The notes: a model not told the origin generated them from the letters alone. A DNA stretch of 64,000 nt from an uncultured Clostridia bacterium (GCA_947630445.1 CANRHQ010000002.1:4233-68232), one strand, 5' to 3'; positions 3,586 through 35,906 are shown, numbered from the stretch's first letter. Made by a program: numbers and translations.

Positions 3586-3620
3586 TTTGCTGATTCCTCT
3601 CCTTTTATAACTTCTTATAT

Positions 3621-3649: not shown

Positions 3650-3663
3650 TGTTTTTGTAAATT

Positions 3664-3703
3664 AAAAAAATAATATTTAATCCTTTTTTGAATTAAATAT
3701 TAT
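3664..3703 (-). terminator. Intrinsic terminator after the Trp-repeat gene
   Basis: 12-bp perfect stem (3670-3681 / 3692-3703) followed by a T-run on the minus strand (A-run 3664-3669 on plus). Confidence 0.5.
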
Positions 3704-3734
3704 CCTAATTTTTGATTGGTGTACCTTTTTAATT

Positions 3735-7970: not shown

Positions 7971-8014
7971 TATTATATTATTTGTGTTGTCCTCGTTTTT
8001 GTTTTTATATTTTG

Positions 8015-8290
8015 TTAAGCCTTTTTTGCAACTTCTACAACTGGATATACACTTACTTGCTTTTTGTCTCTACCTTTTCTTTCAAATTTTACATTTCCAT
8101 CTACTAATGCAAATAATGTATCATCACTACCTTTTCCTACATTAGTTCCTGGATGTACTTTGGTTCCTCTTTGTCTTACTAGAATATTTCCAGCTAATAC
8201 GAATTGACCATCAGCTCTTTTGACACCAAGTCTTTTAGATTCACTGTCTCTACCGTTCTTAATACTACCTTGACCTTTTTTATGTGCCAT
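8015..8290 (-). CDS. rpmA: Ribosomal protein L27, without N-terminal propeptide
   Basis: [24 protein letters not shown]... The ATG at 8290 has AAAGGAG 9 nt upstream. The track ORF start at 8299 is a GTG extension. Confidence 0.95.
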
Positions 8291-8349
8291 ACTTCTCACT
8301 CCTTTCGGTTTTCGTCTAGTTTATATTTTTTATTATTCCAATTTTTTAT

Positions 8350-8727
8350 TTATGCCTTTGTCTTTTCTGTTTTTACTGTTTTTTCAGCACTTTCAGCTTT
8401 TTCTGCTTTTTTTGCAGGTGTTTTTATTCCTGTAATTTCTACTTTAGTATATGGTTGTCTATGTCCTTGTTTTGTTCTTTCATTTTTCTTTGCTTTCATT
8501 TTGAAAACTATGATTTTTTTACCTTTACCATGTGAAACTACTTTTCCTTCAACTTTAATACCTTTTACATAAGGATTTCCTACTTGTATTTTATCATTAT
8601 CAGATACTAATACTACTTTATCGAATGATACTTTTTTACCTTCTTCTGCATCTAATTTTTCGAAAAATACTACATCTCCTTCTGCTACTTTGTATTGTTT
8701 TCCACAACTTTCAATTACTGCGTACAT
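8350..8727 (-). CDS. rplU: Ribosomal protein L21 with Lys/Ala-rich C-terminal tail
   Basis: [25 protein letters not shown] typical L21 N-terminus; directly upstream of rpmA. Confidence 0.95.
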
Positions 8728-8825
8728 TAAAAATGCACCTCCCTTATTTGTATACTCGCTAATCCTTAAATAAAGGTAGTTATTTATTCATAACTTTTAG
8801 TTACCTTGACTAAGCGGATTACAGT
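8728..8825 (-). promoter_or_regulatory. Structured 5' leader of rplU (possible L21-leader type element)
   Basis: About 100 nt lie between the promoter and the rplU ATG, with nested stems (AGTTAT/ATAACT inside GGT/ACC). Assignment to the known L21 leader family was not verified. Confidence 0.35.
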
Positions 8826-8830
8826 TATCT

Positions 8831-8859
8831 ATTGTAACATATTGGTAAAATTTTGTCAA
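8831..8859 (-). promoter_or_regulatory. Sigma-A promoter of rplU-rpmA
   Basis: Minus strand reads TTGACA (8859-8854), 17 nt, TACAAT (8836-8831). Confidence 0.65.
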
Positions 8860-8935
8860 CTAGTTTTTATCAATTTCAATAAAAGTTGTATCCATATATT
8901 TTTCTGCCTAATATATACTTTATTCATTTCTTACA

Positions 8936-8968
8936 AAAATACATTACTCTTTATAAGTAATGTATTTT
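8936..8968 (-). terminator. Intrinsic terminator after the FGE-domain gene
   Basis: 13-bp perfect stem (aaaatacattact / agtaatgtatttt) with a 7-nt loop and a T-run on the minus strand. Confidence 0.6.
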
Positions 8969-9048
8969 CATTTGATAAATTATTATTCTTTATACAACAC
9001 TTCTTTAGTTTTTCCATTAAATTTCAATTTTAAAATTATTAACAGGTA

Positions 9049-10440
9049 TTATTCATAATTTACATAAAGAACAACTCGAAACCCAATACTGAAATCGCAA
9101 CTAGTTAATACATCCCAGCCGTTTGCATGCACAACAGATTCGGTCGCACCATCACTAAAAGAACTACCTCCACGCGGAACAACAAACATGTTTTCACCCT
9201 TAATGGTATGACTTGTTGTCCATTCCCACATATTTCCCGCCATATCATATATGTTATAAACTTTAAAATCGTCACTTGCACCTGTAGCTAATTCTAATCT
9301 ATTATTTCCAGTACCTTTTGGAGCAGTATTATCAGGTATTAATCCTTTTTCATATTTCTTGGCATAATCCCAAGCTGAACCATTCCATTCGTGCCTTGCA
9401 TATAAACAGTTTATTTTTGTGTAATCTGTAGTTTTATTATTCCAATAATTTCCCCATTTTACTGAATTAGTTATAGTTTTTTCAGTATCACTACTTCCTA
9501 ATATTCCATTAAATTTATTACATATTACATTCCATGCTTGACTGTCTACTAAAAAGCTATCAACACTACTATCTGCATCATACATGTTTTCTGCTACCAT
9601 CTTTGAATTTGGTTGAGTAATAAGGTTCCATGCTTGCACTCCTTTTTTACTTACAGGTTTATAACTTTTTATTGAACTTGTTTCACTAGTGTTTCCTCTT
9701 CCTGAGCTAGTATATGTCGCTGCTTGGGTTGTATAGAAAGAAGTAGCTTCACTTGGAATTCCAGCTTCAAATCTTGCTATATAAAAGCCTCCATATGTTT
9801 TTATACTATTTTGTCCTTTTTCTATTTGATTTTCTGCTACCCAATTATCTGTTGGTAAATTATTTGAATAGGTTTTTTCAAGCATAGTTTTATCATCAGG
9901 TGTATATGTATCTCTCCAACCTAAACCATTTCCAGTTCCAGCCGTTGTTGCACTACCAGAAGTATTTCCATTGTCTTTATATTCATTATTAGATGACCAA
10001 TGATTATCCATTACATCATCTTTTGCACTTGTATATTCTGTTTCTGTACATGGTATCCATACAAATTCATTTCCATTTGTATCATCTATTATTACTAATC
10101 CTGTACTTATCGTTTGTTCATCTTTTTGACTTGATACTCTAAATCCTTTAGGAATAGTTGCATAATCTACACCATCTGTATAATTATTTTTTATTGTTTT
10201 TGTTGCTACTTCTCCTGGTTTTAATTTTATATATTCATCGTAAATTTCCTCTATACGATTATTGTCCTTGGAATAGTTCTCCTGTATCTGTTTTATTTGT
10301 TGATCTTGCGTCTGGATTTTATTTAAATTAGATATATACACTCCTACTAACACAAATGTAAAGAACAAACATGCTAATAGTACAAATAATGTTATTGCTC
10401 CATTTTCGTTTGATTTAACACCTTTATTTTTCTTCTGCAT
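9049..10440 (-). CDS. Membrane-anchored protein with C-terminal FGE-sulfatase (SUMF1-like) domain
   Basis: C-terminus reads YDMAGNMWEWTTS ... RGGSSFSDG ... IGFRVVLY, the hallmark motifs of the formylglycine-generating-enzyme/sulfatase-modifying fold. N-terminal hydrophobic segment NGAITLFVLLACLFFTFVLVGVYISN. The likely start is the ATG at 10440 (AAGGTGG RBS); the track start at 10449 is GTG. Confidence 0.8.
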   Translation of the reverse strand: MQKKNKGVKSNENGAITLFVLLACLFFTFVLVGVYISNLNKIQTQDQQIKQIQENYSKDNNRIEEIYDEYIKLKPGEVATKTIKNNYTDGVDYATIPKGFRVSSQKDEQTISTGLVIIDDTNGNEFVWIPCTETEYTSAKDDVMDNHWSSNNEYKDNGNTSGSATTAGTGNGLGWRDTYTPDDKTMLEKTYSNNLPTDNWVAENQIEKGQNSIKTYGGFYIARFEAGIPSEATSFYTTQAATYTSSGRGNTSETSSIKSYKPVSKKGVQAWNLITQPNSKMVAENMYDADSSVDSFLVDSQAWNVICNKFNGILGSSDTEKTITNSVKWGNYWNNKTTDYTKINCLYARHEWNGSAWDYAKKYEKGLIPDNTAPKGTGNNRLELATGASDDFKVYNIYDMAGNMWEWTTSHTIKGENMFVVPRGGSSFSDGATESVVHANGWDVLTSCDFSIGFRVVLYVNYE

Positions 10441-10492
10441 CTTATCCACCTTTCATATATTTAATTATATAATATTAATTAAAATATGTTTA

Positions 10493-11443
10493 TTATCTAT
10501 TTGTTATTTCTTCTAAATCAAGAAGTTCTTGCCATCTTAAATCAACTTCTTTTTGGAATTCTTCTATCATCCATTCATTTCCTGGTTTAAACATATGTTT
10601 AAATCTTTTTTGAGGGCGTAAAAATTCTTCTATTGGAAGTTTCTTTGCTGGTTTGAATGTTATTTTATATTTTCCATCTACTACTTCATATAATGGCCAA
10701 TAACATGTATCCACAGCTAATTTATTTATTTTCATTAAATCTTCTGTTGCATATCCCCATCCTCTTGGGCATGGAGCTAATACATTTAAAAATGCTGGAC
10801 CTTCTGTATATATAGCTTTTTCTGCTTTCTCATATAAATCTTTAAAATTTGTCATTGCAAGTGTTTGACCAACATATGGTATATGGTGTCCTACCATTAT
10901 TTTAGCTAAATCTTTTCTTGCTTGCATTTTTCCTGGTATTACTTTTCCAGCTGGTGATGTTGTTGTATCTGCGAATCTAGGTGTTGCAGATGAACGTTGG
11001 ATACCAGTATTCATATATGCTCCATTGTCATAACAAACATATACCATGTCATGACCTCTTTCCATTGCACCTGATAAACTTTGTAATCCTATATCATATG
11101 TTCCTCCATCACCACCAAATGCTATAAATTTAGTATGCTTATCATCTGGTAATTTTTCTTGTCTTTTTAATGATTTATATGCTGCTTCGGCACCTGCACA
11201 AGTTGCTCCTGCACATTCAAATGCTGTATGTATAAATGAATCTGTCCATGCTGTATATGGATAAATAAATGTTGATACTTCCATACATCCAGTTGCATTT
11301 GTAACTACTGCATGATCTTCAGGTTTTAATGCTCTCATAACCATTCTACCAACTACAGGGGCTCCACAACCTGCACACATCCTGTGTCCTTCAGTGAATC
11401 TTGATGGCTTATTTGCTACTACATCTTTTAAATCATATGCCAT
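10493..11443 (-). CDS. porB: 2-oxoacid (pyruvate/ketoisovalerate-type):ferredoxin oxidoreductase, beta (TPP-binding) subunit
   Basis: 316 aa; CAGCGAP and GGDGGTYDIG TPP motifs. Confidence 0.9.
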   Translation of the reverse strand: MAYDLKDVVANKPSRFTEGHRMCAGCGAPVVGRMVMRALKPEDHAVVTNATGCMEVSTFIYPYTAWTDSFIHTAFECAGATCAGAEAAYKSLKRQEKLPDDKHTKFIAFGGDGGTYDIGLQSLSGAMERGHDMVYVCYDNGAYMNTGIQRSSATPRFADTTTSPAGKVIPGKMQARKDLAKIMVGHHIPYVGQTLAMTNFKDLYEKAEKAIYTEGPAFLNVLAPCPRGWGYATEDLMKINKLAVDTCYWPLYEVVDGKYKITFKPAKKLPIEEFLRPQKRFKHMFKPGNEWMIEEFQKEVDLRWQELLDLEEITNR

Positions 11444-17519: not shown

Positions 17520-20207
17520 TTATTTGCAGTCATACCAATTTGTTGCTTCAGAGACTTCAGCAATCAATGGTACATTTAATTTCATAGCATTTTCCATTGA
17601 ATTTTTTAAAATATCCTTTACAATATCAACTTCATCAAGTGTTGATTCTAGCATCATTTCATCATGTACTTGAAGAACAATTTTAGTTTTTAAACCTCTT
17701 TCCTTAAGTTCCTTTAAAACATTAATCATAGCAATTTTCATAATGTCTGCCGCTGTTCCTTGTATTGGTGTATTCATTGCTACTCTTTGTCCAAATTGTC
17801 TTACCATATAATTATTAGATTTCAATTCAGGTATATATCTTCTCCTTTTAAATAATGTTTCTACATATCCTACTTTTTTAGCACTTTCTACAATTTCATT
17901 CATAAAATTTTTTATTCCTATATATTGTTCTAAGTATTGATCTATATATTGTTTTGCTTTTTTTCTTGATATTCCTAATTGTTGTGCTAATCCAAAATCA
18001 CTTATACCATATACTATTCCAAAATTTACAGCTTTTGCATTGCTTCTTTGTTCTTTTGTTACTTCCTCTATTGGAGTATTAAATACTTTTGATGCAGCTT
18101 GTTTATGAATATCTTCTCCATTTATAAATGCTTGAACCATATGTTCATCATTAGATATATGTGCTAAAACTCTTAATTCTATTTGAGAATAGTCTGCATC
18201 AATATACAAACTTCCTTCTGCTGGTTTAAATACTTTTCTTAATTTTTTACCTAATTCAAATCTTGTAGGTATATTTTGAAGATTAGGTTCTGTTGAACTT
18301 ATTCTTCCAGTAGCAGTAATTGTTTGATGAAAGAATGAATGTATTCTTTTGGTTTTTGGATTTATAAATGGTTTCATTCCTTCAACATATGTTGAATTTA
18401 ATTTCATTAATTGTCTATATTCTAATAACTTTTCTATTACTGGATGTTCTTCTACTAATTTTTCTAAGACATCCACATCTGTTGAATATCCATTTTTTGT
18501 TTTCTTTATGATTGGTAATTTTAATTTTTCAAATAAAATTTCTCCCAATTGTTTTGTTGAATTTATATTAAATTCTTCTCCACATAATTCATAGACCTCT
18601 TGGGTTAATATTTCTAATCTTTCTTTTAATTGTTTTCCATATTCATCTAATTCTTTAATATCAACATACATACCATTCCATTGCATTTCTGCAAGGACTT
18701 CAACAGTTGGCATATCTATGTTTTTAAATAACTCAATCGCATCTATTTCTTTCAATTTTTCTAGAGTTATTTCTGCTAATCTATAAATTTCTTCAGCATA
18801 TAGACAATTTATTATTTTTTTACTATCACCCTGATTTTCTCTTTCCATATCAAACAATGATGTTTGTTCATTTTCTTCTTCTTTTATTCCAATACTTTGT
18901 AAATATTCTGAATTATCTACTTCTAAATAATCTCTAACTATAACATCCATTGTATATTTACTTGTTGGATTTAATATATATGCAGCAACTTTTGCATCAT
19001 ATACTATATTATTAATTGTTATTCCTATTTGTTTTAACAATATATAGTCTTCAGCTAAATCATAACCATATTTTTCAATATTTTTATCTTCAAATATTAG
19101 TTTTAATTGTTCTAAAAAATTCTGATGTTTTCTTATATAGTATAATTTATTTTCAGAATATATACTTATTCCTGTAATATCTTTTTTTATTATATCTTCT
19201 TCATTTTGATTTTCAGATGTTTCTAAAAAGTAATATAATTTCCCGTTTAATTCTGGAATTTTATTTGTCTCTATAATTTCTAATTCTTTCTTTTCTGTTT
19301 TTTTAATAGGTGATTCTGCATTTCTCAACCCAAATCTTTCGATATATCTATTAAAACGTAATTCTTCAAATATCTCTAATACTTTTGGTCTGTCCCATTC
19401 TTCTAGTTTTATATCTTCTAGCGTATCTTCAATTGGTACTTGTGTATTAATTTCTCCTAATTTTCTTGATAATTCTGCCATTTCTTTATTATTAACTATA
19501 TTTTCTTTTTGTTTTCCTTTTAAGTCATCTTCACCTAATTCTATTTTTTCATATAATTCTTGTACAGTATGATATTTTTGTATTAATGATATTGCTGTTT
19601 TAGGTCCTATTCCTGGAACTCCAGGTATATTATCTGATGTATCTCCTTGTAATGCTTTTACTTCTATTAATTGTTTTGGTTCTAATCCATACTCTTCTAG
19701 GATTTTTGCTCTATTATAGTTTTCAGTTTCAGTTTTTCCAGCTTTTGTTCTTGGGATTCTTATTGTTATATTATCACTTGCTAATTGAAAAGTATCTCTA
19801 TCTCCTGATAATATTGTTACTTCTAATCCATTTTTTTCTCCATATTTAGCAAGTGTTCCTAGAATATCATCTCCCTCATATCCTTGTTTTTCTATTATAT
19901 CTATATTCATTGCTTTTAATACTTCTTTTATAACTGGCATTTGTTCGGCAAGTTCATCTGGCATACCATGCCTATTAGCTTTATATCCTTCATATAATTC
20001 ATGTCTAGCTGTTGGACCTTTTAAGTCAAATGCAACTGCAATATATTGTGGTTCTATATCTTCTAATATTTTAAATAATATTGATAAAAAACCATATACT
20101 GCATTTGTATATTTACCATCTTTTGTTGTTAACATCTTACTTCCCATTATTCCATAAAATGCTCTGTTCATTATACTATTTCCATCAATTAAAACTAACT
20201 TTTTCAC
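17520..20207 (-). CDS. polA: DNA polymerase I
   Basis: 895 aa; 5' nuclease N-terminus; DYSQIELRVLAH and QVHDE polymerase motifs. Confidence 0.97.
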   Translation of the reverse strand: MKKLVLIDGNSIMNRAFYGIMGSKMLTTKDGKYTNAVYGFLSILFKILEDIEPQYIAVAFDLKGPTARHELYEGYKANRHGMPDELAEQMPVIKEVLKAMNIDIIEKQGYEGDDILGTLAKYGEKNGLEVTILSGDRDTFQLASDNITIRIPRTKAGKTETENYNRAKILEEYGLEPKQLIEVKALQGDTSDNIPGVPGIGPKTAISLIQKYHTVQELYEKIELGEDDLKGKQKENIVNNKEMAELSRKLGEINTQVPIEDTLEDIKLEEWDRPKVLEIFEELRFNRYIERFGLRNAESPIKKTEKKELEIIETNKIPELNGKLYYFLETSENQNEEDIIKKDITGISIYSENKLYYIRKHQNFLEQLKLIFEDKNIEKYGYDLAEDYILLKQIGITINNIVYDAKVAAYILNPTSKYTMDVIVRDYLEVDNSEYLQSIGIKEEENEQTSLFDMERENQGDSKKIINCLYAEEIYRLAEITLEKLKEIDAIELFKNIDMPTVEVLAEMQWNGMYVDIKELDEYGKQLKERLEILTQEVYELCGEEFNINSTKQLGEILFEKLKLPIIKKTKNGYSTDVDVLEKLVEEHPVIEKLLEYRQLMKLNSTYVEGMKPFINPKTKRIHSFFHQTITATGRISSTEPNLQNIPTRFELGKKLRKVFKPAEGSLYIDADYSQIELRVLAHISNDEHMVQAFINGEDIHKQAASKVFNTPIEEVTKEQRSNAKAVNFGIVYGISDFGLAQQLGISRKKAKQYIDQYLEQYIGIKNFMNEIVESAKKVGYVETLFKRRRYIPELKSNNYMVRQFGQRVAMNTPIQGTAADIMKIAMINVLKELKERGLKTKIVLQVHDEMMLESTLDEVDIVKDILKNSMENAMKLNVPLIAEVSEATNWYDCK

Positions 20208-21594
20208 TTTTTTTCCTCCATTTATTTGTTATAATCTGCCATGCTATAAATAAACATATAATTATCCCTACAAATTGAATATCATATATATAACTTTCTG
20301 CTCTATACATATAAATACTGTTTGCTATTTCCGATATTAATGACAAACCAATTATATTTTTTATAGTATTTGGTCTTTGCCACATTATAGTTGCAAATAA
20401 CCATATTAAATACCATTGTTGAAATGTTGTTAAAATTAATAAAAATAGTATTAACGTTATATTATATTTTCTTAACATTTCTATTAATCTTTTTCTTTGT
20501 TTAAATAAAAATTCTAGACAAATGCAAATAAACACATAAACAAATGATGTTATAAATACAATTCTTATTAAATTAACTTTTAAATCTAATGTTAGTAGAG
20601 CAGAATACATTGATTTTGAATATTTACTGTTTTGAGCCATCATTGCAAATAATACATTTATATCTTTTAGATATGGTATATATTCTATTAATAAAATTAG
20701 TAAAAATATTATTCCATATTGAATACATCTACAAAATCTTTTTAATATAGATTTTTCATATCTAAAATAATATAATATTATTATTGGCAATAAAAGTACC
20801 GAAAAATATTTTATTCCTGTTGCTATTGCTAAAAATAATATGCTTAATAATAGATTTTTCTTTTTACATAAGAAATATAGTGTTAGTAAAATAAAAAATA
20901 CTACTATTATATCATTATGTACATTTCCAATAAATTCTAATAATATAAATGGATTTAATCCATATATAATTACAAATTTTTTCATATTACTTATTTTATA
21001 TATTAAATAACAATTTAATATATGTATCATAAGATTTATAAGTTTAAATACTATTAGACATATATCAATATTCTTCATTGATATTGCTGTACATATTTTA
21101 AATATTAATTGTGATATTGGTCCATATACTACTGTTGTATTTGCCCAAAAATTATTTGCTCCCTGTTCTAATATTTCATCATCTATATTATCTTGGTTTT
21201 TAGTATAATATTCTTTCATCGTTACATAATATGGATTTTGCTTGTATTTCGAATCTAGCTCACCAACACCCATATAATAAAATACATCTGAACTTGTCCA
21301 TGGTAACATTATAAAAAATATTAGACTAACTATTATCACATATTTTAAAATTGATTTTATATCTTTAAAGATTTCCTTTTTTCTAATAATAAGTAAATAA
21401 ACTAATGATAATGCTATAAATAATATTAAATATATACTTGTTGATAATATTTTATTTACTTCTGTATTTATTGCAAAATTATAATATATAGTAAAACCCA
21501 TTATAGTCTTTTTTTGTATTATATATATTATTGATGGAATTATTAAAGTTATACTTATTAATATATAAACAAGTTTTATTATTTTATTTTTCAT
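20185..21594 (-). CDS. Polytopic membrane protein, possibly a GT-C type (DUF2029-like) glycosyltransferase
   Basis: 469 aa with more than 10 hydrophobic segments. The loop SSDVFYYMGVGELDSKYKQNPYY resembles the Asp-containing first loop of GT-C enzymes. Family not verified. Confidence 0.45.
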   Translation of the reverse strand: MKNKIIKLVYILISITLIIPSIIYIIQKKTIMGFTIYYNFAINTEVNKILSTSIYLILFIALSLVYLLIIRKKEIFKDIKSILKYVIIVSLIFFIMLPWTSSDVFYYMGVGELDSKYKQNPYYVTMKEYYTKNQDNIDDEILEQGANNFWANTTVVYGPISQLIFKICTAISMKNIDICLIVFKLINLMIHILNCYLIYKISNMKKFVIIYGLNPFILLEFIGNVHNDIIVVFFILLTLYFLCKKKNLLLSILFLAIATGIKYFSVLLLPIIILYYFRYEKSILKRFCRCIQYGIIFLLILLIEYIPYLKDINVLFAMMAQNSKYSKSMYSALLTLDLKVNLIRIVFITSFVYVFICICLEFLFKQRKRLIEMLRKYNITLILFLLILTTFQQWYLIWLFATIMWQRPNTIKNIIGLSLISEIANSIYMYRAESYIYDIQFVGIIICLFIAWQIITNKWRKKSEKVSFN

Positions 21595-21597
21595 TAT

Positions 21598-21984
21598 TTA
21601 TCCCCTTTGTATTTCTATTTTTGTATTCTCATCTACATTTTGTAATATTTTTTTCATAATATATTTATTTATAGCTATACAACCAGCTGTAAATTTATTT
21701 TTAATACAATGTAAAAATATAGCACTTCCTTTTTCAGGTATATTATATGGATTTGTTTTTAATTCTACTAAATACTCATATTGTATAGGAAAATCTATTA
21801 AGTGTTCTGCTGAAGTCCAATCCTTTTTATGTGTTGTTGATATATCTACTAATTGATTGTAATATTTTGATTTTGGATCATCTATCCAATACATATTGGG
21901 TGAAATTTGTTTGTATTCTAGTTTGGTATTTATCTGTTCTTTTGGATGTATTCCTAATGCAATTCCTACTTTAAATTCTCCCAT
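21598..21984 (-). CDS. L,D-transpeptidase catalytic domain protein (YkuD_2/YafK-like); 5' part disrupted
   Basis: Active-site pattern FLHCIKNKFTAGCIAI. The same frame continues upstream to 22131 (...EGDGKTPMGEF) but has no ATG/GTG/TTG there. An ATG at 22135 is one nucleotide out of frame. Confidence 0.75.
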   Translation of the reverse strand: MGEFKVGIALGIHPKEQINTKLEYKQISPNMYWIDDPKSKYYNQLVDISTTHKKDWTSAEHLIDFPIQYEYLVELKTNPYNIPEKGSAIFLHCIKNKFTAGCIAINKYIMKKILQNVDENTKIEIQRG

Positions 21985-22200
21985 AGGTGTTTTGCCATCT
22001 CCTTCTCTTTTGTTTTCTGTTACTCCATTTTTACCAATAAAAGCAATGGTTTTTATATTACATTTAGGAAATTCTAATATAGTGTTATTATTTTTTTCTA
22101 AAATTTTAACATATATTTTATTTTCTATGTGTCATTCTCCTTTCAATCCTTTTTTATAGTATAACTTTATATTTTCTTTTAAATCTTCTGCTAATATTTT

Positions 22201-22262
22201 CCTCCTTTATAATATGTCTTCTTCTGAATAATGGCACTTAAACCTACATTATTTTTACTTTT
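22201..22262 (-). repeat. Copy A of a ~35-60-bp junction repeat
   Basis: Minus strand aaaaagtaaaaataatgtaggtttaagtgccattattcagaagaagacatattataaaggagg. It aligns with copy B over about 60 nt and ends in an RBS. Confidence 0.5.
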
Positions 22263-22922
22263 TATTATATTCTTCTCCCACAAAAGTAAAATCTTTTCCT
22301 ATTTCTAATATAAAATCTTTCATATTTGAAATAATTGCTTTTTTTAAATCTTTTTCTGAATACTGATTTGGTAAGTCTAAAAATTCTAAACTATAAGTAT
22401 CTAATATTCTTGTATTTGGATAATCCTCTTCTCCTACTACTTTAACTAAACTTTCATTAGCTTTTCCATCTGATAACATATATCTATGAAAATAACCACT
22501 ATTAATTTGTCTATCCAATTCTCTTTTTGAGTAATTATTTTTTATGCACATTCTTATATAAAATTCTTTTTCTTCTATTGTTTTTGTCATACTTAAAATC
22601 ATTAAATTATTAGTCCAACTAATTTGTGTCACCAGTGGTGACACAATTGGATAATCCTTATATGTTTCATAAAACTGTTTCATCCTATAAATTCCACGTC
22701 TATTAAATCCTTTCATTGTTGGATATTCTCTTTTCATAAACTCTACTAACTTATCTATAATCTTTTCTCCCCAATTAGCATCATTTACTTTTTCACTTAT
22801 ATATTTTCCAAAATCCCAATATAAAGAAATTAATTCTTCATTTACTTTTTTATAAGCATTATTTCTTCTTGTTTCTATCATATTTATGATTTCTTTAAAA
22901 TAAGTTCTAAATCATTACTCAA
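22255..22922 (-). pseudogene. YhcG/DUF1016-family (PD-(D/E)XK nuclease) gene, frameshifted near codon 8 and truncated before the nuclease core
   Basis: VNEELISLYWDFGKYI ... GFNRRGIYRMKQFYETY ... ISWTNNLMIL ... EKEFYIRMC ... YSKRELDRQI match the conserved N-terminal half of the family. It ends at FTFVGEEYNKK* where family members continue with the D-EXK core. The TTG-initiated (M)SNDLEL at 22922 is out of frame with the main ORF through a 1-nt deletion relative to the copy at 24153. Confidence 0.7.
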
Positions 22923-22930
22923 TAATATTA

Positions 22931-22992
22931 TCCTCCTATTTAACTTTTTTCATCTAAATAAGGTACTTAAACCAACATTTTTTTATCTTTTT
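22931..22992 (-). repeat. Copy B of the junction repeat
   Basis: Minus strand aaaaagataaaaaaatgttggtttaagtaccttatttagatgaaaaaagttaaataggagg. Confidence 0.5.
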
Positions 22993-23012
22993 CTATTTGG
23001 TTTTTATATCTT

Positions 23013-23048
23013 TCTTCCTCTGAACAATATACTTAACCCCACAAAATT
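23013..23048 (-). repeat. Copy C (more diverged) of the junction repeat
   Basis: Minus strand tttgtggggttaagtatattgttcagaggaagaaag, directly after the RhuM stop. Confidence 0.4.
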
Positions 23049-24047
23049 TTATTGTAATTTTTTTATATCTTCTCCCATAATTTCAAGATAATCTTTTTCA
23101 GCTTGAGTTAAATGAGCTTTCATATATTTATCATATTCTTTATGTGCCTTTTTTAATGCTTTTTCATGTGAAATTGTTCCTGCTCCATTCAAAATATCTT
23201 TATGCGTCATCGTTAAAAATCCATCTAATTCCTTTGTCCAATCTTTCATTGTCATAGGATGCATATTTAAAGCATTAATTTCAGCAACATCTAAATAAGC
23301 TGATACCATTCTATTTAATAAATCTAGTTCTTTTTCTGTTAAATAATTTTTAGCAACTTCTGTTTCTGCCCTTGTAGGCATGTTCCCTTTAAAATTAGTT
23401 AAACCAATATTTTCTTTTTTGCTATCTACTCTATTAAATATTACTTCTGCTGCTGTGTTTCTGTGTACTGCATAATGCATTTTATTTTGAACGGTTTTGA
23501 AAAATTCTTTTGTTTTTTCATCTTTTGCATCATAATCGATACTTGTTGCATAAATATCTAAAATTTTTCTCCAAAACACTTTTTCAGATGAACGAATATC
23601 TCTAATTTTTTCTAATACTTCTTCAAAATATACTCCTCCACCATTATTTTTAAACCTATCAACATTTAAATTATATCCTTTTATTAAATATTCTCTTATT
23701 AATTTATTTGCCCATATTCTAAATTGAGTACCACGAATTGATTTTACACGATATCCAACTGATATAATTAAATCTAAATTATAGAATTTTGTTTTATAGT
23801 TTTTTCCATCTGAGGCAGTTGTCAAGTTTTCCTTGACAACTGAAGTTTCATCCAATTCTTGTTCTTCCAATATATTTTTTATATGCAAACTTATATTTTG
23901 TTTTGTTGTGTTAAAAAGTTTCGCCATTGCATTTTGAGTCAACCAAACATTTTCATCTTCAAGTCTTACTTCTATCTTAACTTGTCCATCATCAGAAGTA
24001 TAAATTAATATTTTATTATCATCTTGATTTTCTATTTCATTATCCAT
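23049..24047 (-). CDS. RhuM-family (virulence protein RhuM-like) protein
   Basis: 332 aa. VWLTQNAMAKLFNTTKQNISLHIKNI ... YNLDLIISVGYRVKSIRGTQFRIWANKLIREYLIKGY is the characteristic RhuM N-terminal/core pattern. Confidence 0.8.
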   Translation of the reverse strand: MDNEIENQDDNKILIYTSDDGQVKIEVRLEDENVWLTQNAMAKLFNTTKQNISLHIKNILEEQELDETSVVKENLTTASDGKNYKTKFYNLDLIISVGYRVKSIRGTQFRIWANKLIREYLIKGYNLNVDRFKNNGGGVYFEEVLEKIRDIRSSEKVFWRKILDIYATSIDYDAKDEKTKEFFKTVQNKMHYAVHRNTAAEVIFNRVDSKKENIGLTNFKGNMPTRAETEVAKNYLTEKELDLLNRMVSAYLDVAEINALNMHPMTMKDWTKELDGFLTMTHKDILNGAGTISHEKALKKAHKEYDKYMKAHLTQAEKDYLEIMGEDIKKLQ

Positions 24048-24075
24048 TAAATTCCTCCTTTCTTATTACTTTAGC

Positions 24076-24153
24076 TTAATTATAAGCATTGGTTCTTCTA
24101 GTTTCTATCATATTAACGATTTCATTAAAATTTAGTTCTGAATTATTACTCAT
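24076..24153 (-). pseudogene. 25-codon 5' fragment of a second DUF1016 gene
   Basis: MSNNSELNFNEIVNMIETRRTNAYN*. It is nucleotide-similar to 22922-22850 (…NMIETRRNNAYKK…), has its own AGGAG RBS, and stops where the RhuM RBS begins. Confidence 0.6.
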
Positions 24154-24197
24154 TCTTAATCATCTCCTAGTTTTTATAAAATTAGAATATAATATTA

Positions 24198-25598
24198 TTA
24201 AAACTTATCATCAACTATTTCTTTTATTTTTTCAATATTTACTTTAGCTTTGTATAAAACTAAACACATTACTATTTTTTCAACAATAACATACGCTATT
24301 ATATCTATATCTGAAAATAATACTTCGTCTTTCATATTTCCATGAGATATTTTATTTCTTGTATTTTTAAAATTATTTGCTATTTGTTCGTTTAATTCAT
24401 CATCTGAAGAATAATTTATACGATAATTTTCAATCAAATTCTTTTTAGTATTAGTTATACAATCTTTAAATAAATTTAATGTATATTTTATTTGTTCTTT
24501 TAAACTTCCTTCCATCTTCTCTATATCTGATTTAAACCAATGTAATATTTCTTTATTTTGAGTTATCTTTTCCTCCTTAATACTATTGTCTATAAAATCA
24601 ATAACTTTATTTTTTAACCTTTTATAATTTTCATCAGCATCGCTTTTATAATTTGGAAAATTTATATCAAACCATGACTCGAATGCAGAAGATATATTTG
24701 AATATTTGTTTATTGTAATTTTTAATTCTTCATTTTTATTTAAGCTATAATAATTTTTATATGCATCTTTCATATTTACAATTAAATATAAATCTTTGAT
24801 ATTTTCTTCTATTTGTTTATACTGTACACAATTTAATGAGTCTGGCAAATCTAATTTTTCTTCATCTTCAACGTAACAATAAAAGTCAAATGTATATTTA
24901 ATATTTCTAATTATTTCATCATCTTTTATCTTTCCGTTTGAAATTAATTTAATTTCACTAAATTTGATATATTTTCTATTATATAAAAATTTAAACAATC
25001 CACAAACTTTTCTATAATATTCAATTACATCCCCAATATTTTTCTTGTTTTTAAATTTAATCTCTAAATATGATTTTATCATTAAAGGAGTATTAGGGTG
25101 TTTATTGCCTCTTGATATGTTTTTATTAATTCCAAAATAAAACAGGTCTCCTTCAATTTCAATTTCATTATTATCCAATACATTAAAATTTATTTTTATG
25201 TCCTTATTATCGCTAAATTCTGTATTTATAATTTTTTGTGGGTCAAAAAATTTATCTATACATTGACCATAAAAAATCATTGAGTCAAAATTATCAATCT
25301 GTGGTAATGGGCTTATCGCATTTGAATTTCCTATTATATAAGCTGGAACGAAAGCCTTATAAATTCCTCCTGTTTGTTTTACCAATTTCAAATTTATAAA
25401 AGTAATTCTATAACCAGAACTTGTTATTCCTTCTAATACTAGATTATTATCAATAGTTCTCTCTTTCAAAGTTTGAAAAAAAGTGTCCCATATATTATCT
25501 AAAGAATCGTCTGGTATTAATGTTAAAATATTATTCATATAATAAAATCCGTATTTCTTTGACTCATATTCTATTTTTCCTTCAATTATATTTTCCAT
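24198..25598 (-). CDS. Orphan 466-aa protein with C-terminal HEPN-like Rx4H motif (ApeA-like architecture suspected)
   Basis: FKNTRNKISHGNMKDE (R-x4-H) lies about 50 residues from the C-terminus in a predicted helical region. Long N-terminal domain with no motif I recognise. Very AT-rich. No TM or signal peptide. Confidence 0.55.
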   Translation of the reverse strand: MENIIEGKIEYESKKYGFYYMNNILTLIPDDSLDNIWDTFFQTLKERTIDNNLVLEGITSSGYRITFINLKLVKQTGGIYKAFVPAYIIGNSNAISPLPQIDNFDSMIFYGQCIDKFFDPQKIINTEFSDNKDIKINFNVLDNNEIEIEGDLFYFGINKNISRGNKHPNTPLMIKSYLEIKFKNKKNIGDVIEYYRKVCGLFKFLYNRKYIKFSEIKLISNGKIKDDEIIRNIKYTFDFYCYVEDEEKLDLPDSLNCVQYKQIEENIKDLYLIVNMKDAYKNYYSLNKNEELKITINKYSNISSAFESWFDINFPNYKSDADENYKRLKNKVIDFIDNSIKEEKITQNKEILHWFKSDIEKMEGSLKEQIKYTLNLFKDCITNTKKNLIENYRINYSSDDELNEQIANNFKNTRNKISHGNMKDEVLFSDIDIIAYVIVEKIVMCLVLYKAKVNIEKIKEIVDDKF

Positions 25599-25599
25599 T

Positions 25600-25680
25600 C
25601 TATTTCTCCCAAATTAATACTTTTTGTTCTTCGAAAATATTTCTTATATGTAAACTTATATTTTGTTTAATTGTATTAAA
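25600..25680 (-). pseudogene. Fragment of a second RhuM-family gene (equivalent to about codons 45-65)
   Basis: Translates FNTIKQNISLHIRNIFEEQ..., against the intact copy's FNTTKQNISLHIKNILEEQ. About 80% nucleotide identity over roughly 57 nt. Ends in TAG one nucleotide before the HEPN-like gene ATG. Confidence 0.55.
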
Positions 25681-25690
25681 AGTTATGTCA

Positions 25691-26740
25691 TTAAGAATTT
25701 TCTTTCTTTTTTAAATTTTTAGAATAATAATAAATATCAGTACACTTTAAATCTTCATCCCATATTTCTTTATCATAATTATCTATAAAAAAATTCTTAA
25801 TTGTCTTTTCATACCTATCAAATCCCTGTTTTACATAGAATGGTATATTATTTTCTGTTGTTCCAACTAACATTTTTTTATATCTTTGTTTATAATTATC
25901 AGCTAGATATTTTATCATTTTTTTCGCATATCCTTTTCCTCTAAATTCTTCTTTTGTTACTATATTTTTTAATTCTACTGTATCATTATCTAATTTTGTT
26001 ACTACTGCTATGCACGCTACATCATCTTTATATCTTAAGACAAATACTTCTCCATCTATTAAATACTTCTCTATCATCTTTTCACTTGGATCTGCTTCAA
26101 GCAATAAACCTATATATTGATTTTTGTCATTTTTTTCTTTATTAATTATAATATTTCTTTTAACTGGTAAAAACTCAAATCCCTCTGGTAAATTTGGTTT
26201 TGTATTTGTGCGGGTTATAAATATTTGTTCTTCTGAAAAAACACAACCACAATATTTTTGCATATATAAACCTAATTCTCTAGCTTCTTTTTGTCCTTCT
26301 CTAAAACCTGGTCTAAAATCCCTATATAAAAATGTTAAATCATATTTTTTAGCAACTTCTTCTCCTAATTGTTTTAATACTTCATGTTGCTGATATGGGC
26401 TAATTAATAATGTTGTTGAAAAAGTATCATATCCATTTTCTTTTGCAAATTTAGCTGTTTGTTCTAATCTAATTTTATAACAATATTTTGAACATCTATT
26501 TTCTAAATCATTTATAACATTTTTGCAAAATTCTCTTAATCCATAATCTTCTTCAAATATAGCTTGTACCCCTATGCTTTCTGTATATTGTTTTAAAGCA
26601 TCTCTCCTTGCCTTATATTCCATATATGGATGTATGTTAGGATTATACCAATATACTGTTGGTTCAATATCTTCTCCTCTTAAAGATTTTATGCAATACA
26701 CACTACATGGTGCACAACATGTATGTAATAGTAATTTCAT
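25691..26740 (-). CDS. queH: Epoxyqueuosine reductase QueH (DUF208) fused to a C-terminal GNAT acetyltransferase domain
   Basis: MKLLLHTCCAPCSVYC N-terminus and conserved Cys pattern of QueH in residues 1-190. Residues ~200-349 carry the GNAT motif A (EEFRGKGYAKKMIKYL). Confidence 0.85.
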   Translation of the reverse strand: MKLLLHTCCAPCSVYCIKSLRGEDIEPTVYWYNPNIHPYMEYKARRDALKQYTESIGVQAIFEEDYGLREFCKNVINDLENRCSKYCYKIRLEQTAKFAKENGYDTFSTTLLISPYQQHEVLKQLGEEVAKKYDLTFLYRDFRPGFREGQKEARELGLYMQKYCGCVFSEEQIFITRTNTKPNLPEGFEFLPVKRNIIINKEKNDKNQYIGLLLEADPSEKMIEKYLIDGEVFVLRYKDDVACIAVVTKLDNDTVELKNIVTKEEFRGKGYAKKMIKYLADNYKQRYKKMLVGTTENNIPFYVKQGFDRYEKTIKNFFIDNYDKEIWDEDLKCTDIYYYSKNLKKKENS

Positions 26741-26762
26741 TATAACACTCCATTCTTATAAA

Positions 26763-27767
26763 TTATCCTAAATATGGATACCCCAAATGTTCATATGCAC
26801 CTGGTAGTACCACTCTTCCTCTAGGCGTTCTTGAAATAAATCCTATCTGTATTAAATATGGTTCATATACATCTTCTATTGTGTCTACTTCTTCTCCTAA
26901 TGATGTTGCCAATGTATCAATTCCTACAGGTCTTCCTTGGTATTGATTTATCATTAAATCTAACATTTTTCTATCTGTTTCATCTAATCCTAATTCATCT
27001 ATTTCTAATTGATTTAACGCATGTTTTGTTATTTTTAATGTTATTTCTCCATTTCCTAAAACAGAAGCATAATCTCTTACTCTTTTTAACAATCTATTTG
27101 CAATTCTTGGAGTTCCTCTTGCTCTCCTTGCTATTTCAACTGCTGAATCATCATCTATATTTAAGTTTAATATTTTAGCTGATCTTTTAACAATTGTTGA
27201 CAATTCTTCAGAATTATAAAGTTCTAGTTTATGTATAATACCAAATCTATCTCTTAAAGGTGTTGTTAATGAACCAGCTTTAGTTGTTGCACCTATTAAT
27301 GTAAATTTAGGCAAATCTATTCTTATTGATTTAGCACTTGGACCTTTTCCTATTACAATATCTAATGTATAATCTTCTAATGCTGGATATAATATTTCTT
27401 CAACATTTTTGCTTAGCCTATGAATTTCATCTATAAATAAAATGTCATATTGTGATAAGTTCGTTAATATAGCTGCTAAATCCCCTGGCTTTTCAATTGC
27501 TGGTCCTGATGTTATTTTTATATTTGCATTCATTTCATTTGCAATTATATTCGCTATAGTTGTTTTTCCTAATCCAGGAGGTCCATAAAATAAACAATGA
27601 TCTAATGCTTCTTTTCTTTTTTTGGCTGCCTCTATATATATTTTCATATTATCTTTTACTTTTGTTTGACCAATATATTCATCTAATGTTTGTGGTCTTA
27701 ATGAGTTTTCTAATTTTTCTTCTTGTATATCTTCTAATTCTGGTCTTATATTAAAATTCTCTTCCAT
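26763..27767 (-). CDS. ruvB: Holliday junction branch-migration helicase RuvB
   Basis: 334 aa; GPPGLGKTT Walker A; FIDEIHRL; typical RuvB length. Confidence 0.97.
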
Positions 27768-27795
27768 TTTTATGCTCCTTTTAATTTATATTCGG

Positions 27796-27824
27796 ATTAT
27801 ATCAGATATACTCGATGTTTTCAA
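27796..27824 (-). promoter_or_regulatory. Sigma-A promoter of ruvB (extended -10)
   Basis: Minus strand reads TTGAAA (27824-27819), 17 nt, TG-a-TATAAT (27801-27796). Confidence 0.6.
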
Positions 27825-27830
27825 TATAAA

Positions 27831-27852
27831 AGAGTAGAATTTCTTCTACTCT
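27831..27852 (-). terminator. Intrinsic terminator after the M23 peptidase gene
   Basis: 9-bp stem agagtagaa/ttctactct with a 4-nt loop and a T-run on the minus strand. Confidence 0.6.
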
Positions 27853-27860
27853 TTACATAA

Positions 27861-28661
27861 TTATTTCAAATATATTGATGGGTCTAAATATTCTCCATCT
27901 TTTAATAATTCAAAATGTAAGTGGCTTTCCATACTACTTTCAAAAGAGGCTGTGTTTCCAACAGTTCCAATAGTTTGTCCTTGTTCTACTTCCTCTCCTT
28001 CAACTACAAACTCAGCTGTTAATAAATTTGAATATACTGTTTGGTAACCATCATCATGTTCTATTACCACTGTTAACCCATATCTTGGATCATTAACTAT
28101 TGATTTTATAATTCCACTTTCAGCTGATTTTATAACACTCGTTTTATCTGCTTTTATGTCAATAGCTGTATGTGTAATCCATTCTTTCAATGTTTCTGAA
28201 TATATTAGATTATCTTTTGCAAATTCACAAATAATCTCACCTTCTGCTGGTTTTATAAATGTTACTTCTTTTTTTGTTTCAGTTACTGCTGGTGTTTCTG
28301 TATTTTCTTCAGTTGAAATATTTTGTTCAACTGGTGCATTTGTTTGCGTATTTGTATTTATAATTGTATCTGGTTCATCTGTTTCAATGCTTGTAGGATT
28401 TTCTTCTTCTATAATATTACTATTTTCTTGCTCTTCAATTGTTTTTCCTATATCTGTACTTGCATTTTCTGTATTTTCATTTTCAGTTGTCTCATTTTTT
28501 TCTAAAATGTCTCTTGTGTTTTCTCCAATTTCTACTTTTTCTGATGTATTTGTCATCATATACATTATTATTCCTAATGAAACTGCTAAAATTAAAAATA
28601 TAGCCATTCCCATATATATTAATACATTCTCATTTTCAAAAAATTTCTTTCCTCTTTTCAT
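27861..28661 (-). CDS. Membrane-anchored M23/LytM-domain peptidase (SpoIIQ-like position next to spoIID)
   Basis: N-terminal TM, acidic linker, then HTAIDIKA (HxxxD) and SHLHFEL (HxH) Zn-ligand motifs. Confidence 0.8.
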   Translation of the reverse strand: MKRGKKFFENENVLIYMGMAIFLILAVSLGIIMYMMTNTSEKVEIGENTRDILEKNETTENENTENASTDIGKTIEEQENSNIIEEENPTSIETDEPDTIINTNTQTNAPVEQNISTEENTETPAVTETKKEVTFIKPAEGEIICEFAKDNLIYSETLKEWITHTAIDIKADKTSVIKSAESGIIKSIVNDPRYGLTVVIEHDDGYQTVYSNLLTAEFVVEGEEVEQGQTIGTVGNTASFESSMESHLHFELLKDGEYLDPSIYLK

Positions 28662-28721
28662 AAATTCCTCCTTGATTACTTTACTAATACAAGTATTTAC
28701 TTTTTTTCAAAGATTATTCAT

Positions 28722-29747
28722 TTAAAGAGAATTTACTTCAATTATTTCTACATCTGTATAAAAATGTTTTATAATTTCTTCAAAATTTGAACCAGTTTTT
28801 GCAAGTGCATCTGCTCCAGTTTGACTCATTCCTACCCCATGACCATAACCAATTACAGAAAATGTAATACTATCATTATTTATAGTAAAAGTAAAATTTG
28901 TTGATTTTAATCCTAAAAGTGTTCTTGCCTCCGTTCCTGCAATTGTTACATTACCAAATTTAATTGTTTTTATCCTACCACTTGTAGTATATTCTAGTAT
29001 TTGTATACAATTTTCTTGTGTATAATCTATTATACATTCATTATATTTTTCTTTAATTTTACTTAATAATTCTTCTTTTGTATATGTAACTTCTGAGGCA
29101 TATTGTGTGTACCCTTCCTCACCAGCAGTTTCTACTGACTTTAAATATGGATAATCTATTTTTCCCCATATGTTTAAAGAACTTTCTGTTATCCCTCCAC
29201 TATTTGCATGAAAAAACGCATTTATTGGTGAACCATTATATGTTATTATTTTTCCACTTGTTGAATTAACTGCATTTACAATTTTATTCCAATTACTTTC
29301 AGCTTCTTCTGCATTCCATTTTGAAAATCTCTCATCTTTACTTATCCATGCTTGACAACAAGCATAATTATCACATATATCTGCATTCTCATGTTTTGTC
29401 GGATTATTTATTGCTTGATAAATTGTATATGTCCTTGCAACTACAGCTTGTGCTTTTAATGCCTCTTCTTCATAACTAGCTGGCATCTCACCAGAAACTA
29501 CTCCATATAAATATTCATCAATATTCAATTCTTCTATTTGACCTGTTTCTTTATGCAATAGTTTTATCGTTTTATATTTTTCATAATTATATTCAGCTGG
29601 TTGTATTTGTTCTTGATTATTATTGTCTGTTATACTTTGCTCATTTATTGATGTCTCTTGAATATTTTTTTTCGATGTAGTACAAATAGCAGGAATTATA
29701 AAAATCAAAATAATAAAACTTAATGAATAAATTAGAATTTTTCTCAT
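28722..29747 (-). CDS. spoIID: Stage II sporulation protein D (SpoIID/LytB amidase-enhancer domain)
   Basis: EALKAQAVVARTY and FHANSGGITES motifs; signal/TM N-terminus. Confidence 0.9.
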   Translation of the reverse strand: MRKILIYSLSFIILIFIIPAICTTSKKNIQETSINEQSITDNNNQEQIQPAEYNYEKYKTIKLLHKETGQIEELNIDEYLYGVVSGEMPASYEEEALKAQAVVARTYTIYQAINNPTKHENADICDNYACCQAWISKDERFSKWNAEEAESNWNKIVNAVNSTSGKIITYNGSPINAFFHANSGGITESSLNIWGKIDYPYLKSVETAGEEGYTQYASEVTYTKEELLSKIKEKYNECIIDYTQENCIQILEYTTSGRIKTIKFGNVTIAGTEARTLLGLKSTNFTFTINNDSITFSVIGYGHGVGMSQTGADALAKTGSNFEEIIKHFYTDVEIIEVNSL

Positions 29748-35309: not shown

Positions 35310-35906
35310 TTACCTTCCTTCTCCTTTTTGTTCTGTATTTTTTATTTGTAAATCAATGCGTTCAATTTGTTCTTTATAATGCTTAACAAGTTGCTTTTCT
35401 TTTCCTTCTTTAGCAACATTTAAAGATTCTATAAATTGCTTTCTTCTATTTTCTAAATTTTCTTCTTTTGTTACTACTTTTTGTGGTACATATTCTGCTT
35501 CTAATTCGCTTAAAATATCATATGGCAAACTCTTTCCGTTTTTCAAACTAACATATGTTTTATATATACTTGCTAATCTTGAATCTTCACTTTCTATATT
35601 TTTAAACTTTCTCTGTAATGTTCTAAAAACAATATTATATTTTAGTGCTAAATCTCTTTGTGAAATTCCTGTAAGTATAGACTCTATCATTAATTGTCTA
35701 AAATCTATTCCTTGCACATCTCTTGGTTTATATGGATATAATTTAATAAATTTTTTATATAGCTCATTATCAGTTTTTTCTAATTTTGAAACTTTTCTGT
35801 ATAATGTATTTAAACCTACATTTTTATTTTTACATGCTATTGCAATATTATTTACTCTTTGTTTTGTTAATTCTTCTATAAAATTTTTCCATTCAACATC
35901 ATTCAT
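35310..35906 (-). CDS. Hypothetical protein with two HTH-like segments
   Basis: 198 aa. VGLNTLYRKVSKLEK and ISQRDLALKYNIVFRTLQRKF resemble helix-turn-helix units. Start overlaps the miaB stop by 8 nt. Confidence 0.6.
   Translation of the reverse strand: MNDVEWKNFIEELTKQRVNNIAIACKNKNVGLNTLYRKVSKLEKTDNELYKKFIKLYPYKPRDVQGIDFRQLMIESILTGISQRDLALKYNIVFRTLQRKFKNIESEDSRLASIYKTYVSLKNGKSLPYDILSELEAEYVPQKVVTKEENLENRRKQFIESLNVAKEGKEKQLVKHYKEQIERIDLQIKNTEQKGEGR

Follow-up and report, generated by a model that had tools for sequence, protein, structure and literature searches.

Organization of the queH-polA Region

The window analyzed here is a 64,000-nucleotide (nt) stretch of DNA from an uncultured Clostridia bacterium, and all coordinates given without a locus number are positions in the whole window. 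Downstream of ruvB and queH it carries a short segment with two intact genes, one coding for a 466-amino-acid (aa) protein with a C-terminal HEPN domain (25598-24198; referred to below as the HEPN gene and the HEPN protein) and the other for a 332-aa RhuM-family protein (24047-23049), along with the remains of DUF1016/YhcG genes. According to the open reading frame (ORF) map, every gene across 17.5-29.7 kb of the window lies on the minus strand, as do all the features described here. In the order of transcription, ruvB (27767-26763) is followed by a queH-GNAT fusion (26740-25691), an internal fragment of RhuM (25686-25621), the HEPN gene, a 5' stub of DUF1016 (24153-24076), RhuM, two copies of a ~30-nt element (23019-23043 and 22953-22979), a damaged DUF1016 gene (22922-22255), a third copy of the element (22222-22250), a YkuD (L,D-transpeptidase) gene (21598-22135), a membrane protein gene, and polA.

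The initial annotation of this DNA had described five pieces (the HEPN gene, RhuM, the damaged DUF1016 gene, the DUF1016 stub, and the RhuM fragment), and all of them were recovered in the places indicated via the ORF map, profiles, repeats, and tblastn. Its picture of decaying, non-core DNA of the defense type agreed with the profile matches obtained for HEPN, RhuM, and DUF1016, and the HEPN gene and RhuM are indeed the intact genes, with DUF1016 dead by two lesions. As also annotated, no methylase, specificity, restriction subunit, integrase, or transposase ORF was present in the ORF map of 22136-25690. The wider region of 19000-29000 held no hsdM, hsdS, or hsdR ORFs and so does not qualify as a type I restriction-modification (R-M) locus. 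An Rfam search of 21000-27000 returned nothing at E≤1.

Between queH and the HEPN gene lies a spacer of 92 nt, most of it the RhuM internal fragment, and the spacer of 150 nt between the HEPN gene and RhuM contains the DUF1016 stub. The promoter scan was uninformative (54 promoter-like sites versus 52.5 expected) and zero terminators were predicted. Since no terminator was predicted and the spacers are only 92 and 150 nt long, it is plausible that the HEPN gene and RhuM are co-transcribed with ruvB-queH.

The HEPN Protein Belongs to a Large Family with a Conserved RNxxxH Motif

The 466-aa protein, annotated at first as an orphan, turned out to have many relatives. It matched the Pfam profile HEPN_Apea with a score of 26.8 bits versus a gathering cut-off of 24.4, the match spanning residues 301-453 and profile positions 2-132 of 136. 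A HEPN domain of this type is also present in the single-gene anti-phage defense system ApeA of ~600 aa (Gao et al. 2020). A word-indexed search gave 37 homologues at E≤1e-3, many of them with a precomputed PF18862 (ApeA_NTD1) assignment, and an exhaustive profile search at the same threshold gave 476 clusters (50% identity) with a typical length of 445-485 aa. ApeA_NTD1 was matched by 13 out of 19 close homologues (62-67% identity), at best with 1.7e-7; PADLOC profiles produced only spurious weak matches with these 19 proteins. A diverse alignment was then available for 89 family members, reaching down to 17% identity. Among them ApeA_NTD1 was detected in 16 and HEPN_Apea in 24, and the other recurrent matches were to HEPN families only. 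A second word-indexed search with the diverse profile did not add any annotated or longer relatives.

The sole invariant positions of the 89-member alignment are M1, G7, R414, and H419, while N415, F306, and E307 are at least 90% conserved, and the window protein keeps all the family-invariant residues. With R414 and H419 invariant and N415 nearly so (≥90%), the RNxxxH motif is the core of the family. In the window protein it reads RNKISH (codons 414-419, positions 24342-24359), which confirms the C-terminal Rx4H motif noticed previously. The protein is a predicted infection-triggered HEPN ribonuclease (RNase). The AlphaFold2 (AF2) model built from the 89-sequence alignment (predicted local distance difference test, pLDDT, 91.6; predicted template modeling score, pTM, 0.89) is beta-rich in residues 1-241 and helical in residues 260-466. 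This architecture fits the description by Anantharaman et al. 2013 (PMC3710099) of ApeA-NTD1 as a domain of ~300 aa that consists of "mostly beta strands" and is joined to a HEPN domain of the Apea type. The N-terminal half is slightly more divergent than the HEPN half (57-64% versus 64-75% identity). No relatives of the HEPN protein turned up in phage and plasmid collections searched by tblastn or in a scan of viral contigs.

The Slot Between queH and polA Is Variable among Relatives

Two sets of related loci, numbered with the prefix L, were compared with the window: loci anchored on the HEPN gene, from metagenome-assembled genomes (MAGs) of uncultured Clostridia of the rabbit and human gut, and a sample of 80 metagenome loci anchored on queH. 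In the first set, an intact DUF1016 gene follows the HEPN gene in L001/L011, L004-7, and L014, in which the HEPN gene itself comes after queH; in L010 and L008, in which the HEPN gene is preceded by genes for a sigma factor and an anti-sigma-like protein (zf-HC2), with RhuM after DUF1016 in L010 and RhuM copies upstream in L008; and in L016, in which RhuM precedes the HEPN gene. In L013, L017, and L018 the HEPN gene is followed by RhuM after a 47-nt spacer. The HEPN gene of L018 is a pseudogene (region 8001-9192) with a frameshift and residues 336-414 missing, and the adjacent RhuM is intact and 92% identical to that of the window. Other neighbors were seen farther away in the family: Trypsin_2 and an integrase next to a distant member; in L020 (6001-8459), a DUF6602 protein encoded 15 nt after the ApeA-like gene, inside an element with a serine recombinase; and in L103 (1-8449), in this order, a type III R-M system (N6_N4_Mtase, ResIII), a Ymh-type HEPN protein, the ApeA_NTD1 protein, and a HATPase_c_4/Fic-like protein. 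The settings in L020 and L103 are classic ones for defense genes.

Among the 80 queH-anchored loci none carried the HEPN gene, and RhuM, full or fragmentary, was found in ~17. DUF1016 was intact in L100 and present as fragments after queH in L089 and L092, in L064/L065 DUF1016 sequence abuts RhuM remnants, and L081 is an empty site with polA 227 nt after queH. Each of the three families fills the queH-polA slot with or without the others. The islet is variable across relatives, as the initial annotation had suspected, its states being empty, RhuM only, DUF1016 only, and the ApeA-like gene with DUF1016 and/or RhuM. The gene after RhuM in L013 (~3490-3720) and L018 (~10260-10500) has, as judged by eye, a ParB/sulfiredoxin-like N-terminus (…ITPLIVRKKD.YYEII.GHRR…), and would represent a further family of the defense-island type in the same slot.

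These neighborhoods bear on the question of a partner for the HEPN protein. The HEPN gene and RhuM had been proposed to cooperate, that is, to form a co-transcribed two-gene conflict module combining RNA-level with protein-level attack. The two genes lie side by side in the same orientation in the window, L013, L017, and L018, with identical 47-nt spacing in the latter three loci, no terminator was predicted between them, and HEPN-with-RhuM neighborhoods in R-M loci have been described in the literature as possible multilevel defense. Nevertheless, such a module is unlikely in the light of the wider comparison. The neighbors of the HEPN gene vary, and it occurs without RhuM in L001/L011, L004-7, and L014; RhuM occurs without the HEPN gene in the ~17 queH-anchored loci and outlived a broken HEPN gene in L018; distant members of the HEPN family have no RhuM beside them. 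Compared with its counterpart in L013, RhuM shows 93% identity and the HEPN gene 66.5%, and the histories of the two genes therefore differ. The DUF1016 stub lies between them in the window, so their junction is secondary and derived from an ApeA-like-DUF1016 arrangement.

In another alternative the true partner is the PD-(D/E)XK nuclease DUF1016, which might, for example, produce DNA pieces that activate the RNase, the pair being broken in the window and the HEPN gene a leftover. In favor of such a pair, an intact DUF1016 gene of 335-336 aa lies directly 3' of the HEPN gene in at least six distinct genomes with three upstream contexts, the window retains a stub of this arrangement, and one characterized ApeA protein, Ec2ApeA, is switched on by DNA breakdown products (deoxydinucleotides). 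We nonetheless hold this partnership to be improbable. In the window, L013, and L017 the HEPN gene does without DUF1016 and is still intact and under constraint, DUF1016 stands alone after queH in L100 (intact) and in L089 and L092 (fragments), and distant members of the HEPN family have no DUF1016. DUF1016 also seems to move independently, because it is 86-91% identical across hosts whose RuvB proteins are 73-81% identical. It may moreover have a promoter of its own: in L004, L008, L010, and L014 the 152-nt HEPN-DUF1016 spacer contains a near-consensus sigma-70-type sequence (TTGACA, 17 nt, TAAAAT; ~9420-9450), which suggests that DUF1016 is transcribed independently in these loci.

The HEPN gene lies immediately 3' of queH in many relatives, and tRNA anticodon loops are cut by ApeA proteins. 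Both facts would suit a housekeeping role of the HEPN protein in tRNA or RNA processing, tied to queH and queuosine tRNA modification rather than to defense. Yet the gene is missing from all the queH-anchored relatives sampled (0/80), it is located away from queH in L008, and elsewhere it resides in mobile elements or an R-M island, which makes a housekeeping role very improbable. RhuM and DUF1016 occupy the same slot, and the linkage to queH therefore reflects the site and not the function.

Remnants, Recombination Junctions, and Gene Histories

The intact RhuM gene, reported as such in the initial annotation, matched Pfam Virulence_RhuM with 345 bits over nearly the whole profile (1-248 of 252) and the PADLOC candidate family PDC-S05 with 483 bits (residues 8-325, profile positions 3-320 of 330). 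The RhuM fragment downstream of queH comprises 61 nt with 87% identity to 23856-23916 inside the intact gene, and tblastn aligned it to RhuM aa 45-65 (E 1.6e-4). The same scar was found in L001, L003, L011, and L015.

The damaged DUF1016 gene had been called frameshifted and truncated. It matched DUF1016_N with 143 bits and YhcG_C at positions 4-51 of 157 only, whereas the intact DUF1016 of L001 (336 aa) covers YhcG_C positions 4-156. When its DNA is aligned with that of L001, the closest relative, two lesions become visible behind a TTG start: codon 7 is followed by the loss of 1 nt (AACTT-ATTTT; about 22901), and ~327 nt are cleanly deleted in frame between the microhomologies GAAGAATATA and GAAGAAAATA. 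The second lesion takes out the PD-(D/E)XK core, with YhcG_C positions 52-157 missing. The frameshift was thus confirmed, but the gene is internally deleted rather than truncated, because its natural C-terminus and stop codon are retained. Assembly errors might account for the 1-nt lesions of DUF1016 and YkuD, which lie in homopolymer/AT runs, but not for the 327-nt deletion.

The DUF1016 stub (25 codons plus a stop) encodes MSNNSELNFNEIVNMIETRRTNAYN, and its region of ~97 nt is 73-86% identical to 22845-22941. These repeats and the collinearity with L001 identify it as the start of the DUF1016 gene that originally came after the HEPN gene. From ruvB through 82 nt of DUF1016, up to position 24070, the window and L001 are collinear; the RhuM cassette common to L013, L017, and L018 begins at 24078, and DUF1016 restarts with its first codon at 22921. 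The arrangement in the window therefore goes back to an ancestor with HEPN followed by DUF1016, which acquired a segment with RhuM by recombination, and not to an original HEPN-RhuM unit. Another DUF1016 leader and start, the third and very degenerate, is possibly present at 22263-22132.

A ~30-nt element (TTTGTGGKYTTAAGTA..T.TT.CAGA) abuts the stop codons of two unrelated genes, DUF1016 and RhuM. It was identified in the window by repeat alignment in three copies: the first abuts the RhuM stop codon (also detected in a window pattern scan at 3 mismatches), the second is followed by the ribosome-binding site and the TTG start of the DUF1016 remnant, and the third comes directly after the DUF1016 stop codon and before another ribosome-binding site. 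Further copies are located in L001 (12448), L004 (10565), L008 (10564), L010 (twice, 10574 and 11827), L014 (10564), L025 (9852), and L098 (~2329). All exact matches of its 13-nt core in 1.06 Mb of related DNA (11/11) directly follow a RhuM or DUF1016 stop codon; the first window copy is not among these 11. The element gave no Rfam match and no match in viral contigs, and it is a candidate cassette boundary, leader peptide, or RNA element. Another window match (35796-35822) falls within coding sequence and was attributed to chance. A reading of the islet as integron attC cassettes was likewise rejected, with no inverted cores or partner in the window (attC sites judged by eye) and no integrase in the islet. 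In other relatives an alternative post-stop hairpin, GGTTATATATTATAACCGC, stands behind RhuM or DUF1016 stop codons and is common to both families (L008, ~1195; L016, ~10470; L045, ~3195; L048, ~7510; L049, ~5705; L050, ~6228).

A recurrent breakpoint of DUF1016 was mapped at AATAATGCTTATAA. The 5' stubs end there in the window (24076), L008 (10751-10802), L010 (11994-12065), and L014 (10731-10802), and in L064 (~8270) and L065 (~8269) the remaining DUF1016 starts at the same sequence, fused to the stop codon of RhuM, which has the same microhomology, AAATAATG. The recombination junctions fall at short repeats. The shared post-stop elements, the recurrent breakpoint, and the microhomology-bounded deletion within DUF1016 point to homologous and microhomology-mediated exchange rather than to a dedicated recombinase; the islet contains no recombinase gene.

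The alleles of both intact genes fall into two classes, with identities of 80-93% and 43-48% for RhuM, and 93-96% and 63-67% for the HEPN gene. The synonymous divergence (dS) between the window and L001 equals 0.91 for ruvB, 0.40 for queH, and 0.16 for the HEPN gene, and this fall at the HEPN gene indicates that its allele was probably exchanged recently between species, cross-bin assembly effects being the other possible source. In L011, L012, and L015, three MAG bins from one rabbit sample (Lapin-012), the HEPN alleles are 93-96% identical and the ruvB genes 78-81% (amino acids).

The HEPN gene has been under purifying selection, with a ratio of nonsynonymous to synonymous divergence (dN/dS) of 0.16-0.22 versus five relatives; the corresponding value for RhuM was 0.06 versus L013. 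These values bear on the alternative in which the whole islet is vestigial and the ORFs of HEPN and RhuM have stayed open by chance and without a function. The surrounding debris (two stubs, the dead DUF1016, and the frameshifted YkuD gene) would suit a relic, and L018 is an example of a HEPN gene decaying in the slot. However, a 1.4-kb ORF remains open in DNA of 20% GC, the dN/dS values of both genes are low, the family-invariant residues are all retained, and the low dS relative to L001 points to a recent acquisition of the HEPN allele. Hence, there is little probability that both genes are functionless.

Flanking Genes

The flanks were identified by Pfam as polA, the membrane protein, YkuD, queH, and ruvB, and the ORFs beyond them resemble M23 peptidase and SpoIID as judged by eye. 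The queH-GNAT fusion (QueH, 206 bits, and GNAT) is the conserved upstream anchor of the hotspot. The initial annotation had taken the L,D-transpeptidase gene as a core border on the opposite side, which did not hold. The ATG is shifted out of frame by one base in the A-run at about 22121-22124, the repaired translation matches YkuD at 39.6 bits, and the gene was absent from every related locus examined. It therefore belongs to the variable or accessory region and not to the core, and in its present form it is either a pseudogene or the product of an assembly error.

The form of queH was compared between the window (25691-26740), L045, L048, L049, and loci L064-L099. The gene codes for a 349-aa QueH-GNAT fusion in the window and some relatives, and for a 171-aa QueH alone in many others. 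Additional GNAT-domain fragments lie downstream of RhuM in L045, L048, and L049, which suggests that the insertion of cassettes can split or duplicate the GNAT part of the fusion.

A Probable Defense Hotspot with an ApeA-Type HEPN Protein

Altogether, we consider it fairly likely that the region downstream of ruvB-queH is a variable defense hotspot in which single-gene cassettes turn over, and that the HEPN protein is a functional RNase acting alone. Unrelated single-gene cassettes (ApeA-type HEPN RNase, RhuM, and DUF1016/YhcG) would have been gained, swapped, and eroded in this very low-GC lineage of gut Clostridia, the window genome retaining the HEPN gene and RhuM as two intact cassettes next to a dead DUF1016. 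RhuM would be an independent neighbor and a candidate toxin or defense gene. As to the HEPN protein, we infer its expression, its RNase activity, its trigger, and its anti-phage phenotype. Following general HEPN biology, a dimer of HEPN_Apea domains would build a composite RNase site from R414, N415, and H419. This site might be kept off as long as the beta-rich ApeA_NTD1 region has sensed no infection cue; after sensing, by analogy with characterized ApeA, tRNA anticodon loops or phage RNA would be cut and translation or phage replication halted.

Several observations speak against the assignment and against parts of this mechanism. The HEPN_Apea score exceeds the cut-off by only 2.4 bits, the window protein itself gives no ApeA_NTD1 match at E≤1, and no PADLOC-DB 2.0.0 family matched it at E≤0.1. 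Sequence searches of the PDB, with the single protein and with the 89-sequence profile, found nothing below E 0.1. Foldseek, run with a model of pLDDT 72 against the PDB and with the model of pLDDT 92 against the PDB and BFVD, gave no match at E≤0.001, the top matches having TM-scores of ~0.1. Since the fold searches were empty, it is the sequence profile that carries the HEPN fold. The comparison with characterized ApeA, made on the first 400 residues of six proteins from a preprint supplement, gave an hhalign probability of 0.03% for the family profile, and none of the six proteins matched ApeA_NTD1 in this part. The N-terminal halves being dissimilar, the sensing step is not transferable from characterized ApeA. 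The literature search retrieved no experimental study of the short ~460-aa class, and a distant "minimal" ApeA homologue of 467 aa proved uncloneable, presumably because of toxicity (Hör-lab preprint). Finally, given the persistent adjacency to DUF1016 or RhuM in this lineage, a functional link retains some plausibility.

Such a link could take another form, in which the short ApeA_NTD1-HEPN protein is a functional anti-phage RNase that works, in this lineage, with whichever of DUF1016 or RhuM is adjacent, as an interchangeable two-component system whose cassettes are swapped via the ~30-nt element. We regard this version as quite unlikely and prefer the hotspot of single-gene cassettes described above. 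The locus is an ordinary decaying defense hotspot and no new two-gene system. The family of the short class was defined computationally in 2013 and its effector domain is that of a well-studied defense system. A divergent ApeA_NTD1-HEPN member from uncultured gut Clostridia, invisible to PADLOC, adds little alone. The analysis does document a small queH-polA defense hotspot with clear recombination scars.

Comparison with Known Systems

RhuM and DUF1016 are families enriched beside hsdS/hsdM and in defense islands. For RhuM, protein modification was proposed as the activity in 2013, and our literature search did not find an experimental study of the function of either family. RhuM (PF13310; PDC-S05) is full-length in the window and DUF1016/YhcG (PF17761 and PF06250; PDC-S02) is still recognizable, but, in contrast to the accessory genes of type I R-M loci, they are accompanied by no R-M system, and the nuclease core of DUF1016 has been lost. 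In the lineage of the window both families behave as swappable cassettes at the queH-proximal slot.

The PrrC/RloC anticodon nucleases and the HEPN-MNT pairs share with the window protein a HEPN RNase effector used for abortive defense or as a toxin. Unlike PrrC/RloC, the window locus has neither the ABC-ATPase fusion nor the masking R-M partner. It also differs from HEPN-MNT toxin-antitoxin pairs, as the spacers on both sides of the HEPN gene contain nothing besides the RhuM fragment and the DUF1016 stub, and neither an MNT gene nor any other small antitoxin ORF lies next to it.

The closest known relatives are found in the Pfam ApeA/BMEI1217 family (ApeA_NTD1, PF18862, and HEPN_Apea, PF18739), with which the window protein shares a C-terminal HEPN domain with RNxxxH, the typical length of ~450-480 aa, and, as predicted by its AF2 model, a mostly beta N-terminal domain of ~250-300 aa. 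ApeA_NTD1 itself is recognized in close homologues and not in the window sequence alone. Other members also occur in neighborhoods of the defense-island or R-M type. The family of the window protein differs in lying at the edge of the Pfam models (24/89 and 16/89 matches, as given above), and its gene sits in the queH-polA hotspot with RhuM and DUF1016 and not in an R-M operon.

With the characterized ApeA proteins (Ec1/Ec2/Ec3/Ec4/Pa1ApeA) the window protein shares the organization as a single protein with a C-terminal Apea-type HEPN domain, and its RNKISH motif closely matches RNKITH in Ec1ApeA. Recent preprints (bioRxiv 10.64898/2026.01.26.701840 and 10.64898/2026.03.20.713152) describe HEPN-dependent protection by ApeA with cutting of tRNA anticodon loops, decameric or dodecameric doughnuts, a 5'-phospho-deoxydinucleotide as the activator of Ec2ApeA, and the additional cleavage of the genomes of RNA phages by Ec1ApeA. 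The characterized proteins are "predominantly alpha-helical" and consist of N-terminal, Mid, and HEPN domains, the first two of which form the ligand pocket; they are ~600 aa long and helical, whereas the window protein has 466 aa and a beta-rich N-terminal half. As for the single-gene ApeA system, no conserved partner accompanies the HEPN gene, its neighbors varying between DUF1016, RhuM, DUF6602, Trypsin_2, and Ymh/Fic-like proteins. By sequence, the window protein thus appears to share the effector type of characterized ApeA and not the sensor half, and to lie outside the characterized clade; by analogy, it is expected to act as an infection-activated RNase. The short beta-rich class (~476 clusters at 50% identity) has the HEPN_Apea effector in common with ApeA and an unrelated N-terminal half, a putative beta-rich sensor with no solved structural relative. 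The window protein, a compact member of 466 aa shaped by purifying selection, would be a sensible choice for finding out what this second sensor recognizes.

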